Shown here: positions 653 through 4,226 of the stretch, piece by piece
Position numbering within the stretch: the stretch's first letter is position 1
How the letters are laid out: each line of letters opens with the position of its first letter
Source: a virus
Taxonomy: Duplodnaviria > Heunggongvirae > Uroviricota > Caudoviricetes
Direction: 5' to 3' (one strand)
DNA length: 4,226 nt
Virus record (IMG/VR): IMGVR_UViG_3300001919_000205
The notes under the pieces: generated by a model
Databases searched by the model: none
Told to the model about the DNA's origin: nothing
Seen by the model: the letters and a program-made list of their open reading frames with translations, nothing else
Program-made: the position numbers and the translations under genes

Positions 653-1005
653 ATGTTTTCGAAATGGAAGGGTTTCTTCGCGGGAAATGTGTACCGCGAG
701 ATCTGAAAGTGAACGAAACAAATGCTGAGTACCTGGTACGTAAATTCGATGCGCTTGAAGCTAAATGTGCGGCACTGGAAAACAAAATAATACCAGTGTC
801 AGCTGAACTGCCACCAGCAAATGAAAGTGTTCTGTTATTTGATGCTAACGGAGAAGGCTGGCTAATTGGCTGGCGTTCTCTCTGGTACACCTGGGGACAA
901 AAAGAAACCGGAGAATGGCAGTGGACATTTCAGGTCGGGGACCTTGAAAACGTCAATATCACTCACTGGGCAGTAATGCCAAAAGCACCGGAGGCTGGAG
1001 CATAA
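643..1005 (+). CDS. yfdS: YfdS-like prophage protein, 120 aa (DUF551 family as I recall)
   Basis: ORF 643..1005 with GGAG (631-634) 8 nt upstream of ATG 643. Overlaps the yfdR stop (650-652), indicating translational coupling. Size (120 aa) and position after yfdR match the K-12 CPS-53 order yfdR-yfdS-yfdT as I recall it. Trp-rich C-terminal half (WLIGWRSLWYTWGQKETGEWQW). Confidence 0.75.
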   Translation: MRMNVFEMEGFLRGKCVPRDLKVNETNAEYLVRKFDALEAKCAALENKIIPVSAELPPANESVLLFDANGEGWLIGWRSLWYTWGQKETGEWQWTFQVGDLENVNITHWAVMPKAPEAGA

Positions 1006-1903
1006 TGACCACATTTACCAATAAAGAACTGATTAAAGAAATCAAAGAACGAATCAGCAGCCTAGAGGTTCGAGACGATATTGAGCGCCGTGCTTATGAA
1101 ATTGCTCTGGCATCGCTGGAAGCAGAGCCTGTAGCGGAATGCATTGTTGAAGATGGGGGGATGTGTATTGACGGGTTCGGTGAGTATGTGGGTCACTCGC
1201 TACCTGATGGAACGCACCAGCTTTACACCGCCCCGCCGGCGCAGGTAGTGACGGATGAAATGTATTGGCAGGATGCGCCAGTTGAAGGCAGCAGCAAAGC
1301 GGCTGCATACGCTACAGGCTGGAACGCCTGCCGCGCTGCCATGCTCTATGGTGCCGTACCTGCAAGCAAGGCTTACAAGTTGCCACAAACGCAGTTTAAA
1401 CAGGTTGCTGACCTCTACGAAATGCAATTTGATGACGGTCGCACTTGTGCCTTTCACACTGANNNNNNNNNNNNNNNNNNNNNNNNNNNNNNNNNNNNNN
1501 NNNNNNNNNNNNNNNNNNNNNNNNNNNNNNNNNNNTTCACACTGATGCGCAAAAGGCTGTGCAATGGCTTCAGGCGTGCGACGGAAACAGGGTTCAGGAA
1601 TACGTTAAGCTGGAACGATTGCAGAACGCACTGTCTGGCAACTCTCCGGTAACTCCGGATGGTTGGGTTATGGTGCCGAAGAGACTAACAGCCGAGAACG
1701 GCGCTAAGGGGGCGCTATCCGGTGAATTTTCAGAAACTACGTTTATAAGCTGCCTGGAATGCTTTGGCGATGATGATTGCGATACCTGTGACGGGAGCGG
1801 ACGTATTGAAATTAAAGTGCCAGTCACGTGGTCGACCATAAAATCTATCTGGGATAAAGGTATCGAGTATTTTGCAGCAAAACCATCACAAGAGGTGAAG
1901 TGA
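1005..1903 (+). CDS. Hypothetical prophage protein (YfdT-position), ~271 aa if the gap is collapsed; C-terminal CxxC...CxxCxGxG zinc-finger-like motif
   Basis: ATG at 1005 overlaps the yfdS stop (TAATG). Frame-0 ORF runs into the N run at 1463; an open frame resumes after the gap in frame 2 and ends at TGA 1901-1903. Removing the gap and one copy of the flanking 10-bp repeat joins the two halves in frame (...CAFHTD|AQKAVQWLQ...). C-terminus has CLECFGDDDCDTCDGSGRIE, resembling DnaJ-type CxxCxGxG repeats. Confidence 0.6.
1463..1535. other. 73-nt run of N (assembly/scaffold gap or masked segment) flanked by a 10-bp direct repeat
   Basis: N at 1463-1535. The sequence ttcacactga occurs immediately before (1453-1462) and immediately after (1536-1545) the run. 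Confidence 0.95.
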
Positions 1904-2784: not shown

Positions 2785-2800
2785 ACTAAAACTATGGATA

Positions 2801-2831
2801 ACCCGTATATGTACGGGTTATTTTTCTTTAT
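2801..2831. terminator. Bidirectional intrinsic terminator between convergent operons
   Basis: Hairpin ACCCGTA (2801-2807) / TACGGGT (2812-2818) with loop TATG, followed on + strand by T-rich tract TATTTTTCTTT (2819-2829). The stop codon of the - strand gene (2818-2820) abuts the stem. Confidence 0.7.
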
Positions 2832-3366
2832 CACTATCTTTTCTTGATTTGAACAATCCACTAACAACGAAACCAACCAAACCAACAATACTAATTGTAC
2901 TTGTACCTAGTAATGCAACGATCGCTTCAACTGGAGGCTTTCCTTCATGTGCAATAAGAAACGATGTAAACATTGCGACAACGAATAAGCACCAACACGA
3001 CATAAACCAAACCGTGAATGAGGCCATTTTTGTCCGAAGCTCATTGTCTATTTCTTTACCAGTTGCGTCAGCTATCTTATCCCGTACTTGTGATTTGAGC
3101 ATATCAAGCTGAGCTTGAAGACTGTCCATTCTGTTCTGCTGCATAAACTCATGCAATGCACCAGTATTAGAACCAAACTCTTCTGCCTCCAGAATAGCTT
3201 TATTTTCTGAAGAAGAATCATCGTCGCTCTCATGATTAGACGGCTCAAATGCAGATTTAAAAACCTGTTCTTGACTGTCAGTAGAGTTTAAGGATGCTTC
3301 AGAGCGACCATTTTCAACACCTGCGGCCGCTCCGATAAGTTTATAAATATCTGAATTGTGAGACAT
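2818..3366 (-). CDS. Putative membrane effector/toxin: acidic N-terminal region, predicted amphipathic helix, C-terminal 2-TM hairpin, 182 aa
   Basis: ORF 2818..3366 (-), ATG at 3366 lying 21 nt downstream of the Panacea gene stop, with AGGGA upstream. Hydrophobic segments SFTVWFMSCWCLFVVAMFTSFLIA and AIVALLGTSTISIVGLVGFVVSGLF separated by HEGKPPVE; basic C-tail KSRKDSDKEK. N-terminus is acidic and Ser-rich (ESDDDSSSENKAILEAEEF) followed by QAQLDMLKSQVRDKIADATGKEIDNELRTK. No recognised family. Confidence 0.75.
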   Translation of the reverse strand: MSHNSDIYKLIGAAAGVENGRSEASLNSTDSQEQVFKSAFEPSNHESDDDSSSENKAILEAEEFGSNTGALHEFMQQNRMDSLQAQLDMLKSQVRDKIADATGKEIDNELRTKMASFTVWFMSCWCLFVVAMFTSFLIAHEGKPPVEAIVALLGTSTISIVGLVGFVVSGLFKSRKDSDKEK

Positions 3367-3387
3367 GTCATCCCTGAATATTACTTT

Positions 3388-3861
3388 TCAGAGGCCCTGA
3401 CATTGCTGTCGGTTATTCAATAAATCATGATAATAAGCCTTGATCGCATCATTTGAGATGATTGACGAGCCAATACCATTATAAGCTTGTGACCAAGGCG
3501 TACCTGGCATATGAGTTAGAGTTGATAACTCAATTCCATTTTTCGAGCCGTAAAACTTATAAACAGCCCCGATAATGCTCTCTGCTTGCGGATCCATAGT
3601 AACGATGCCACCAAAAGGAGCTACTGCTACATTCGTAACAGGTTTATTCCCATAGTCTTTGAAAGCATCGTACATTCCAGGAATAACTGGACCGTACTTC
3701 CACGCGGAGACACATTCATTGAGCAAAGGCTTACCTGTTAATGCTAAATAGTAACCATGGGCAATATAAGTAAGCTTCTGCAGTTGCATGTGGGTCAGAG
3801 GATTATGATGTTGGTTTCCCAACGTTATGAATTTATTGGCTATTTGTACCGGACTGTACAT
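3388..3861 (-). CDS. Panacea-domain (DUF4065) protein, putative antitoxin/immunity component (PanA-like), 157 aa
   Basis: ORF track 3388..3876; preferred start is ATG at 3861 (MYSPVQIANKF...) preceded by a perfect AGGAGG (complement of 3868-3873) with a 6-nt spacer. The track's ATG at 3876 overlaps that SD. Motifs LTHMQLQKLTYIAHGYYLA...PLLNECVSAWKYGPVIPGMYDAFKDYG match the Panacea/DUF4065 signature (LT..KLQKLLY.AQG...AW..GPV...Y) as I recall it. Confidence 0.8.
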   Translation of the reverse strand: MYSPVQIANKFITLGNQHHNPLTHMQLQKLTYIAHGYYLALTGKPLLNECVSAWKYGPVIPGMYDAFKDYGNKPVTNVAVAPFGGIVTMDPQAESIIGAVYKFYGSKNGIELSTLTHMPGTPWSQAYNGIGSSIISNDAIKAYYHDLLNNRQQCQGL

Positions 3862-3984
3862 AACCACCCTCCTCATTACACTGAATGTGCAAACAGTATC
3901 ATCACTGTTATCTCAACCTAACACGAACAAAAAAGTTTTGGAAGATTGCAAGAGCAATTCACTGTGTTTATAACCAGCAAATGA

Positions 3985-4000
3985 CTGTACATATACACAG
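3985..4000. promoter_or_regulatory. LexA-box-like operator (SOS box) CTGT-N8-ACAG
   Basis: CTGTACATATACACAG at 3985-4000: perfect CTGT / ACAG half-sites with an 8-nt AT-rich spacer (consensus CTGT-(AT)4-ACAG). It lies ~12-27 nt downstream of the predicted - strand TSS. A weaker adjacent match CTGTGTTTATAACCAG sits at 3962-3977. Confidence 0.45.
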
Positions 4001-4018
4001 GTTACAAATTGGTGGCGA

Positions 4019-4046
4019 ATTATACCTGCAGAAGTTGCGATGTCAA
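4019..4046 (-). promoter_or_regulatory. Consensus sigma70 promoter for the - strand Panacea/2-TM operon
   Basis: On the - strand: TTGACA (complement of 4041-4046), 16-nt spacer, TATAAT (complement of 4019-4024). Both hexamers match consensus exactly. Predicted TSS ~4012, giving a ~150-nt leader to the ATG at 3861. Confidence 0.6.
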
Positions 4047-4147
4047 CAAAGCGACCATCACAGTGTTTTGCATCTGACACTGTTATGACAAAAAATCTTT
4101 TGATAGGTTCCCAATAGGCTCCCACAAAACACATAACCAATTGTTTT

Positions 4148-4226
4148 TCAAAAACGATACATCCTATCGAGCATTGGTGCAACGCTAAACCGACCACTCC
4201 AGTGAACGTCAGTTTTTTCAGGCATT
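4148..4226 (-). pseudogene. dusA: Orphaned 5' fragment of host dusA (tRNA-dihydrouridine synthase A) truncated at the prophage att junction
   Basis: Reading the - strand from 4225: ATG CCT GAA AAA ACT GAC GTT CAC TGG AGT GGT CGG TTT AGC GTT GCA CCA ATG CTC GAT = MPEKTDVHWSGRFSVAPMLD, then RMYRF and TGA (4150-4148). The peptide matches the DusA N-terminal region with the Dus-family APM.D motif as I recall it; native DusA continues ...LDWTDRHCRYF. Similarity is lost below ~4165. Confidence 0.55.

Follow-up and report, generated by a model that had tools for sequence, protein, structure and literature searches.

A probable PanA-PanT toxin-antitoxin cassette at the dusA-side end of a lambdoid Escherichia coli prophage

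The 4,226-nucleotide stretch of Caudoviricetes DNA in IMG/VR record IMGVR_UViG_3300001919_000205 (hereafter called the window) derives from a lambdoid Escherichia coli prophage integrated at dusA, of which it forms the right-hand end. Our subject is the minus-strand open reading frame (ORF) at positions 2818..3366, which encodes 182 amino acids (aa) as originally predicted. This gene encodes a 96%-identical copy of the already known PanT of an E. coli prophage, so that the finding is real but not novel, and it is very probably the toxin gene of a two-gene PanA-PanT type II toxin-antitoxin (TA) cassette. As a discovery this adds little, because work from 2022 validated the pair and already described the toxin's charged N-terminus and its transmembrane (TM) layout at the C-terminus. 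What the analysis does offer is a sharper map of how a soluble Panacea domain might restrain a membrane toxin, which is an under-studied point. The map places constrained residues in the second TM helix (TM2), in G103-R111 and in an E60/F64 motif, and free drift in aa 21-55. It also suggests that the cassette is autonomous cargo of a prophage end at which different Panacea cassettes are found in sister phages.

Identity of panT and its pairing with panA

The window toxin (RefSeq WP_021563277.1) aligns without gaps to PanT(Esc. col.), WP_000019185.1, whose sequence we took from NZ_CP129263.1, and 175 of the 182 residues (96%) are identical. The seven substitutions are V35A, K37E, S47R, V130A, A131G, T134V and S178G. 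The product of the neighboring gene is identical at 157 of 157 positions to PanA(Esc. col.), WP_000287252.1, and identical records carry the same RefSeq accession. The two genes and the spacer between them are as follows.

2818..3366, minus strand: panT, a 182-aa membrane toxin (ORF of 182 aa plus stop, near-identical to the validated PanT(Esc. col.))
3367..3387, minus strand: panA-panT spacer of 21 nucleotides (nt) with an AGGGA ribosome-binding-like site, from sequence reading
3388..3861, minus strand: panA, a 157-aa stand-alone Panacea-domain antitoxin (PF13274 SocA_Panacea, E=6e-18)

Kurata et al. 2022 (PMC8832971, Table 1) list WP_000019185.1 and WP_000287252.1 as PanT/PanA(Esc. col.), a “Membrane” pair from Shiga toxin-producing E. 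coli (STEC) O31. The supplementary table of that paper gives this pair the order A|T, a gap of 22, toxin cluster T3 and the validated status “TA”. Expression of PanT(Esc. col.) is toxic and PanA rescues the cells (PMC8832971). The toxin inhibits incorporation of 35S-Met, 3H-uridine and 3H-thymidine indiscriminately, like HokB (the comparator phenotype in that study) or carbonyl cyanide m-chlorophenylhydrazone (CCCP), and it causes strong DiSC3(5) depolarization and raised SYTOX Green permeability (PMC8832971). Toxicity, neutralization, depolarization and permeabilization have thus been published for a 96%-identical toxin with an identical antitoxin. The same paper remarked that PanT(Esc. col.) has a charged N-terminus and TM regions at its C-terminal end, and the window protein has this layout by hydropathy, structure model and charge. 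The STEC O31 locus further resembles the window in its gene order, its spacer, its slot beside a PrtN-family/xis gene and its overall architecture.

The RefSeq start of panA is the methionine at 3861, which is M6 of the longest ORF form beginning at 3876. This start is supported by an AGGAGG Shine-Dalgarno sequence (3873..3868) six bases upstream. In the 157-aa protein, the match to PF13274 spans aa 37-133, equivalent to 32-128 of the 162-aa ORF form that was scanned. The NCBIfam model SocA_antitoxin (NF047745) also matches PanA with E=1e-27 and 97 bits, against an equivalog cut-off of 190 bits.

A scan of a viral collection returned 53 related loci, and a scan of a genome collection with one genome per species returned 3. 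A PanA homolog lies directly upstream of the toxin gene, on the same strand and 21-47 nt away, in all 73 of the 73 related loci that have upstream sequence. Likewise, a PF13274 gene is directly upstream of, or overlaps, each of four distant homologs (4/4), of which three are 140-147 aa long and one is a 206-aa Vibrio protein. The pairing is therefore independent of the long acidic stretch found in the window protein, because the 140-147 aa forms are still accompanied by a Panacea gene. In the window, panA and panT (3366-3861) are in the same frame and are separated by TGA plus seven codons (KVIFRDD), such that read-through of a single stop would give a fused PanA-PanT protein. This arrangement is probably incidental because the spacer varies in length among relatives (21-47 nt).

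The ORF at 2818..3366 is far beyond a chance ORF, as judged by a full-length match to phrog_13343 (E=2e-113), 255 homologs found by profile search and strict synteny with a Panacea gene. The PHROG matches are to families of unknown function, and the Pfam, NCBIfam and PADLOC libraries gave no meaningful family for PanT. Matches to DUF2207_C, 7tm_6 and exosortase fell below the cut-off, look like TM-composition matches and were set aside. Searches of the PDB with the PanT profile returned weak TM-composition matches only (for example, Piezo with E=0.002), the PanA sequence matched nothing there, and no solved structure of any PanT or PanA relative came out of these searches.

Layout and conservation of PanT

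Topology, disorder, the conservation pattern and the cassette signals given below are predictions made here. Hydropathy was calculated on the Kyte-Doolittle scale averaged over 19-residue windows. An AlphaFold2 (AF2) monomer was built on an alignment of 33 sequences, and its confidence is expressed as the predicted local distance difference test (pLDDT) score. The protein can be divided into the following segments, listed from the N-terminus.

3325..3357, minus strand: short N-terminal helix, aa 4-14 (NSDIYKLIGAA), in the AF2 model with a block pLDDT of 52-59
3202..3321, minus strand: acidic Ser/Asp/Glu-rich low-complexity region, aa 16-55, with pLDDT below 50
3169..3201, minus strand: conserved acidic motif, aa 56-66 (KAILEAEEFGS; A57-x-x-E60-x-x-x-F64), from an AF2 helix at 56-66 and from conservation
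3025..3165, minus strand: predicted long cytoplasmic helix, aa 68-114, continuous with TM1 (AF2 helix 68-139)
2950..3024, minus strand: TM1, aa 115-139 (Kyte-Doolittle peak 2.15 at aa 121-139, AF2 block pLDDT 78-85)
2926..2949, minus strand: loop HEGKPPVE, aa 140-147, predicted to be periplasmic (non-helical at 140-145 in the AF2 model)
2851..2925, minus strand: TM2, aa 148-172, AIVALLGTSTISIVGLVGFVVSGLF, with a small-residue face (Kyte-Doolittle peak 2.22 at aa 149-167)
2821..2850, minus strand: Lys/Asp-rich cytoplasmic tail KSRKDSDKEK, aa 173-182

Much of the original prediction agrees with this layout. A Ser/Asp/Glu-rich, disordered N-terminus of about 60 aa had been proposed, and residues 1-60 indeed hold 12 D/E compared to 4 K/R together with 13 S/T; the model suggests that aa 16-55 are probably disordered. 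The anticipated pair of hydrophobic helices was recovered by topology prediction, both as the two hydropathy peaks and as an AF2 hairpin in which the first helix ends at residue 139 and the second spans 146-179. Block pLDDT is 77-85 across most of this hairpin and 68 at the loop block (aa 141-150). The turn of eight residues and the short Lys/Asp-rich tail are also present as described.

The charge counts are +5/-3 for the tail, +1/-2 for the loop and +3/-4 for the residues that directly precede TM1. Together with the positive-inside rule, this distribution suggests that both termini of PanT are cytoplasmic, an N-in/C-in topology. Within TM2, 9 of the 11 small residues fall inside a 160-degree arc, and this face could be a helix-packing or pore-lining surface.

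The segment QAQLDMLKSQVRDKIADATGKEIDNELRTKM (aa 84-114) had been described as a heptad-like amphipathic helix. It is predicted to be helical at low confidence (pLDDT 56-60), but it is not a separate helix and instead forms part of one continuous AF2 helix (aa 68-139) that enters TM1. The hydrophobic moment of aa 85-114 is 0.125, compared to 0.181 +/- 0.093 for shuffled sequences, 68% of which reach the observed value. An a/d heptad pattern is limited to M80-L83-L87-L90-V94. The labels “amphipathic helix” and coiled coil were dropped for aa 85-114, given that the moment and heptad tests were no better than shuffles.

PanT belongs to a small family. Among 1.84 billion representatives, a search with the single sequence yielded 53 matches, and a profile search yielded 255 proteins. 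Conservation was measured on 33 enterobacterial long forms of 156-214 aa that are 31-95% identical overall. More distant relatives are often 108-147 aa long and align to the query only over about aa 70-178, and what is common to all family members is the pre-TM helix plus the hairpin. The N-terminal domain had also been called unusually long. Its approximately 114 aa before TM1 are normal among the enterobacterial long forms, and they exceed what is found in the 108-147 aa relatives.

A contrast that is new here is the near-invariance of TM2 compared to the free drift of aa 21-55. TM2 has a mean identity to the reference of 91% across the 33 homologs, with the nearly invariant sequence ALLGTSTISIVGLVGFVVSGLFK, and its GLVGF...GLF core is retained in the most distant relatives. 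Over aa 21-55 the identity to relatives averages 0.16, the alignment is indel-rich and 26% of its aligned cells are gaps; the stretch is net acidic in most relatives (about 28 of 33). Other positions are strongly constrained. In the juxtamembrane motif G103-x-x-I-D-N-x-L-R111, residues G103, I106, D107, N108, L110 and R111 are invariant in the 33 sequences, and A115, T118, F121, M122, W125, C126, F128 and V129 are conserved in TM1.

Two elements go beyond the original prediction, namely the N-terminal helix at aa 4-14 and the A57-x-x-E60-x-x-x-F64 motif. The former is conserved among relatives that are at least 60% identical. In the latter, E60 is invariant (33/33), A57 is kept in 26 of 33 sequences, and position 64 is F, L or Y in all 33. 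The A-x-x-E-x-x-x-F pattern recurs in many distant long forms and was not found in the short forms of 108-136 aa. We regard aa 56-66 as a candidate short docking element for PanA.

Mechanism and contact with PanA

In the mechanism that we propose, the cassette would be self-contained (own promoter, two genes and terminator) at the dusA-side end of the prophage, and PanT would enter the inner membrane as a hairpin of two helices whose ends both face the cytoplasm. Free PanT would depolarize and permeabilize the membrane, with the result that translation, transcription and replication would halt together. The near-invariant TM2 and its small-residue face would most likely drive helix packing or oligomerization into the lesion. 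PanA, produced from the gene just upstream, would keep PanT harmless; it most likely binds the aa 56-66 motif and/or the juxtamembrane helix (aa 103-114), and not the variable acidic stretch. The parts of this scheme that we infer are the formation of an oligomeric pore, the place where PanA makes contact, the trigger and the role in biology.

Several points weigh against this interpretation. The window allele is seven residues away from the one that was tested (TM1 and the variable acidic region have three changes each, and the tail has one), and its toxicity is presumed from the 96%-identical toxin. The pull-downs that revealed direct PanA:PanT complexes cover five other pairs (PMC8832971). 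The AF2 monomer of PanT has low confidence overall (mean pLDDT 59, predicted template modeling score 0.27), and the proposed contact site is a plausible one that draws on analogy and conservation. Furthermore, the table in PMC8832971 flags the STEC O31 locus as “NotPhage”, which conflicts with the prophage end seen here and with the presence of the cassette in three isolated phages. PADLOC-DB v2 has no model for the pair, with no match for PanT and only a spurious one for PanA (E=0.017), and anti-phage activity of this cassette is not reported in the literature searched.

A close parallel is PanT of Bartonella apis/choladocola (T12/D11), which likewise depolarizes and permeabilizes the membrane and which a stand-alone Panacea domain neutralizes directly. 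In an AlphaFold model of Bartonella PanT(D11), Panacea contacts the unstructured N-terminal region and the short pre-TM helix, and the PanA substitutions Y56A and H120E abolish neutralization (Ernits 2023, PMC10440598). Interface mutagenesis of this kind is confined to the Bartonella pair. Toxin clusters T3 and T12 may be homologous, yet they were not clustered together by the pipeline of Kurata et al. (PMC8832971), and no Bartonella protein was among the 120 matches listed of the 255-protein PanT profile search.

That the N-terminal region of PanT could be the surface bound by its Panacea partner was part of the original prediction. It is plausible by analogy with the Bartonella pair. Natural alleles also bear on this point. 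The E. coli PanT alleles that occur with one identical PanA vary in aa 21-55, in TM1 and in the tail; among them, aa 1-20 are unchanged or carry H3R only, aa 56-102 have at most two differences and aa 103-114 never vary. This pattern fits contact on the conserved cytoplasmic elements, short of proof.

We also advance, tentatively and with somewhat more doubt than confidence, the idea that the pre-hairpin part of PanT is a modular control region. The A57-x-x-E60-x-x-x-F64 and G-x-x-IDN-x-LR motifs would dock PanA, the acidic stretch would tune release or sense a phage cue, and whole cassettes would be swapped at the dusA-end slot. If this is true, the locus would be a natural system for watching Panacea antitoxins get matched to new toxins.

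Alternatively, PanA might act on the TM hairpin or block its insertion co-translationally, leaving the N-terminal region for trigger sensing, solubility or turnover. Family-wide conservation is limited to TM1, TM2 and the juxtamembrane residues, and a Panacea gene still accompanies the forms of 140-147 aa despite their much shorter N-termini; both observations favor action on the hairpin. That an identical PanA serves PanT alleles differing in TM1 can be read either way. However, PanA is soluble and has no hydrophobic segment, and in the experimentally probed Bartonella model it is the N-terminal region and the pre-TM helix that are contacted. Moreover, it is TM1 that varies among the alleles sharing one PanA, whereas aa 1-20 (H3R at most) and aa 56-114 (at most three differences) are steady. 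We therefore consider action on the hairpin unlikely and prefer docking on the conserved cytoplasmic elements.

PanT could also be viewed as a phage holin or pinholin for lysis timing, with PanA as its antiholin. Two TM helices in a predicted N-in/C-in arrangement, a highly charged C-terminal tail, and depolarization and permeabilization upon expression all agree with such a role, and they recall class II holins. PanT shares with holins at least one TM helix and a charged C-terminal tail. Unlike holins, it bears about 114 additional cytoplasmic residues, is encoded outside a lysis cassette and is kept in check by a Panacea protein that is transcribed together with it. No holin family matches PanT in Pfam (E<=0.1) or PHROGs. 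Instead of sitting in a lysis cassette with an endolysin or spanin gene, panT occupies the end of the prophage, where it converges on the early-left genes and has promoter and terminator signals of its own. In a lambdoid relative (L017), the cassette is a separate unit between the Q antiterminator gene and a distinct holin gene (PF05106), upstream of the latter. The gene is also dispensable cargo, as described below. A holin function is so improbable that we give it almost no weight. The original prediction had likened the protein to holin-like or abortive-infection membrane effectors. Its core, a membrane-acting toxin, stands through the pairing with Panacea (96% PanT, 100% PanA, published phenotype), and holin or PADLOC family membership does not; the comparison is a working analogy only, because no Pfam or PHROG holin and no PADLOC model matches.

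Another scheme would follow the SocAB type VI TA system of Caulobacter, whose antitoxin shares the Panacea/SocA domain and whose toxin is unrelated to PanT. PanA would then serve as an adaptor through which ClpXP receives and degrades the toxin, instead of acting as a stoichiometric inhibitor. The match to NCBIfam SocA_antitoxin (E=1e-27) and the naming of the Pfam domain after SocA point in this direction. Nevertheless, the score of 97 bits is far under the 190-bit equivalog threshold, which PanA thus does not reach, and PanT is a membrane protein that matches no curated toxin family. ClpXP and Lon are unnecessary for neutralization by PanA, although the panel from which this was concluded may not include this pair (PMC8832971). 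A SocAB-like mechanism is very unlikely on these grounds, and both the holin and the SocAB-type memberships were rejected by family, location and score evidence.

Other membrane toxins are comparable to PanT(Esc. col.) in phenotype. HokB, TisB and GhoT likewise depolarize membranes, with or without pores. Hok and TisB are peptides of fewer than 60 aa with RNA antitoxins. RmrT (RosmerTA, phage Kita) is a toxin anchored in the membrane by its C-terminus. It belongs to a phage-borne TA system that defends against phages, and its partner is an ImmA-type antitoxin, unlike the Panacea partner of PanT. No sequence relation of PanT to Hok, TisB, GhoT or RmrT was detected in the Pfam and PADLOC scans.

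Prophage setting and biological role

Two signals flank the cassette.

4019..4046, minus strand: promoter-like site with TTGACA, 16 nt and TATAAT (12/12 sigma-70 consensus), from a consensus scan, about 158 nt upstream of the panA ATG
2796..2823, both strands: terminator-like hairpin between the convergent xis-like gene (plus strand) and panT (minus strand), with a 12-pair stem on the plus strand and a 10-pair stem on the minus strand

The sequence of the first site suggests that it is probably the cassette's own promoter, with a long 5' leader. It lies inside the prophage, because the genomes of isolated phages end at about window positions 4167-4174. The site sits in an unannotated 94-aa ORF (3913..4197) that has no family match. 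The panT stop codon is inside the stem of the terminator-like hairpin, and four terminator-like sites were found in total compared to 0.8 +/- 0.8 in shuffled sequences. G+C content is 0.37-0.42 across the cassette versus mostly 0.44-0.56 elsewhere in the window, except in bins that include a run of N. Given its promoter, terminator and G+C content, the cassette looks like an autonomous cargo unit.

Among 5426 complete E. coli genomes, panT was found in 79, with every copy at no less than 94.7% nucleotide identity, whereas the adjoining exonuclease-xis backbone is present in 741. That panT is present in only 79 of these 741 genomes indicates that it is dispensable cargo.

The same slot (window 2818-3876), between the xis-like gene and attR, is occupied in sister dusA prophages (L085, 4154-5142; L087, 3919-4967; L086, 3719-4622). 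In E. coli O121 it holds a 190-aa Panacea protein with an unrelated 128-aa protein that lacks a PanT match, and in strain YZ22PE68 a 193-aa Panacea protein with an unrelated 153-aa protein that also lacks one. In O157:H7 Z910 it carries ORFs of 177 aa and 57 aa with no Pfam match. Whole Panacea cassettes seem to be exchanged at this slot. What is new with regard to the locus is that the Panacea gene is upstream throughout, that promoter and terminator signals of its own flank the cassette at the dusA-side end, and that different Panacea cassettes are present in sister slots.

Homologous PanA-PanT cassettes are also present in P2-like prophages between DinI/gpA and the portal gene (L011, 4964-6724; L014, 4853-5551; L015, 4844-6517). 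Their neighbors there include a retron-type reverse transcriptase (RT)-Toprim protein (PADLOC E=2e-212) and weak PD-T7-4-like (E=1e-6) and DitB-like (E=5e-10) matches. This location looks like a hotspot for defense cargo.

The turnover of the cargo slot and the defense-gene neighbors suggest that the cassette is anti-phage or superinfection cargo. Its likely role would thus be prophage-encoded abortive infection or superinfection defense, with prophage maintenance as the alternative. In the latter case, the toxin mechanism would be the same and the cassette would mainly be an addiction module that kills or arrests cells that lose or rearrange the prophage end. Such a function is encouraged by the position of the cassette at the extreme attR-side end beside an excisionase-like gene, and an addiction role has been discussed for TA systems near transposons and prophages (PMC8832971). 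The literature searched reports no defense phenotype and PADLOC gave no match, which also agrees with addiction. On the other hand, homologous cassettes occupy variable cargo slots in unrelated prophage types, beside the retron-type RT-Toprim gene and the weaker PD-T7-4-like one, and the alternative Panacea cassettes in the sister dusA slot show turnover that is typical of defense cargo. In addition, a defensive function is on record for related membrane TA toxins, for example RmrT from phage Kita. We therefore judge a role mainly in addiction to be rather unlikely and favor defense. Beyond two papers from the Hauryliuk/Atkinson groups, our literature search found nothing on this pair or its phage defense, and a paper that used phage PhiR47.1 does not discuss PanAT.

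The remainder of the window shows early-left genes on the plus strand, comprising a YfdR-type HD 5'-deoxynucleotidase, a DUF551 protein, an ea22-like ORF, an Rv2179c-like 3'-5' exonuclease and a PrtN-family/excisionase-like gene. These are followed by the two minus-strand genes and then by the start of a truncated dusA fragment, which RefSeq annotates as a truncated tRNA-dihydrouridine synthase without its C-terminus from about window position 4166. A run of 73 N at 1463-1535 interrupts the ea22-like ORF (1005..1652), and the sequence of this gene in the window is incomplete as a consequence.

The right-hand 1.5 kb of the window is matched at 100% identity by E. coli chromosomes and at 96-99% identity by three isolated phages (PhiR47_1, 1720a-02 and phiSTEC1575-Stx2k), the genomes of which stop at about window 4167-4174. 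The cassette is present in isolated temperate phage records OQ243220.1, KF030445.1 and PV340566.1. Only PhiR47_1 carries the PanT/PanA annotation, and the other phage records use hypothetical or DUF4065. Judging by its name, phiSTEC1575-Stx2k is an Stx2k phage, and the cassette therefore appears to travel on medically relevant prophages.

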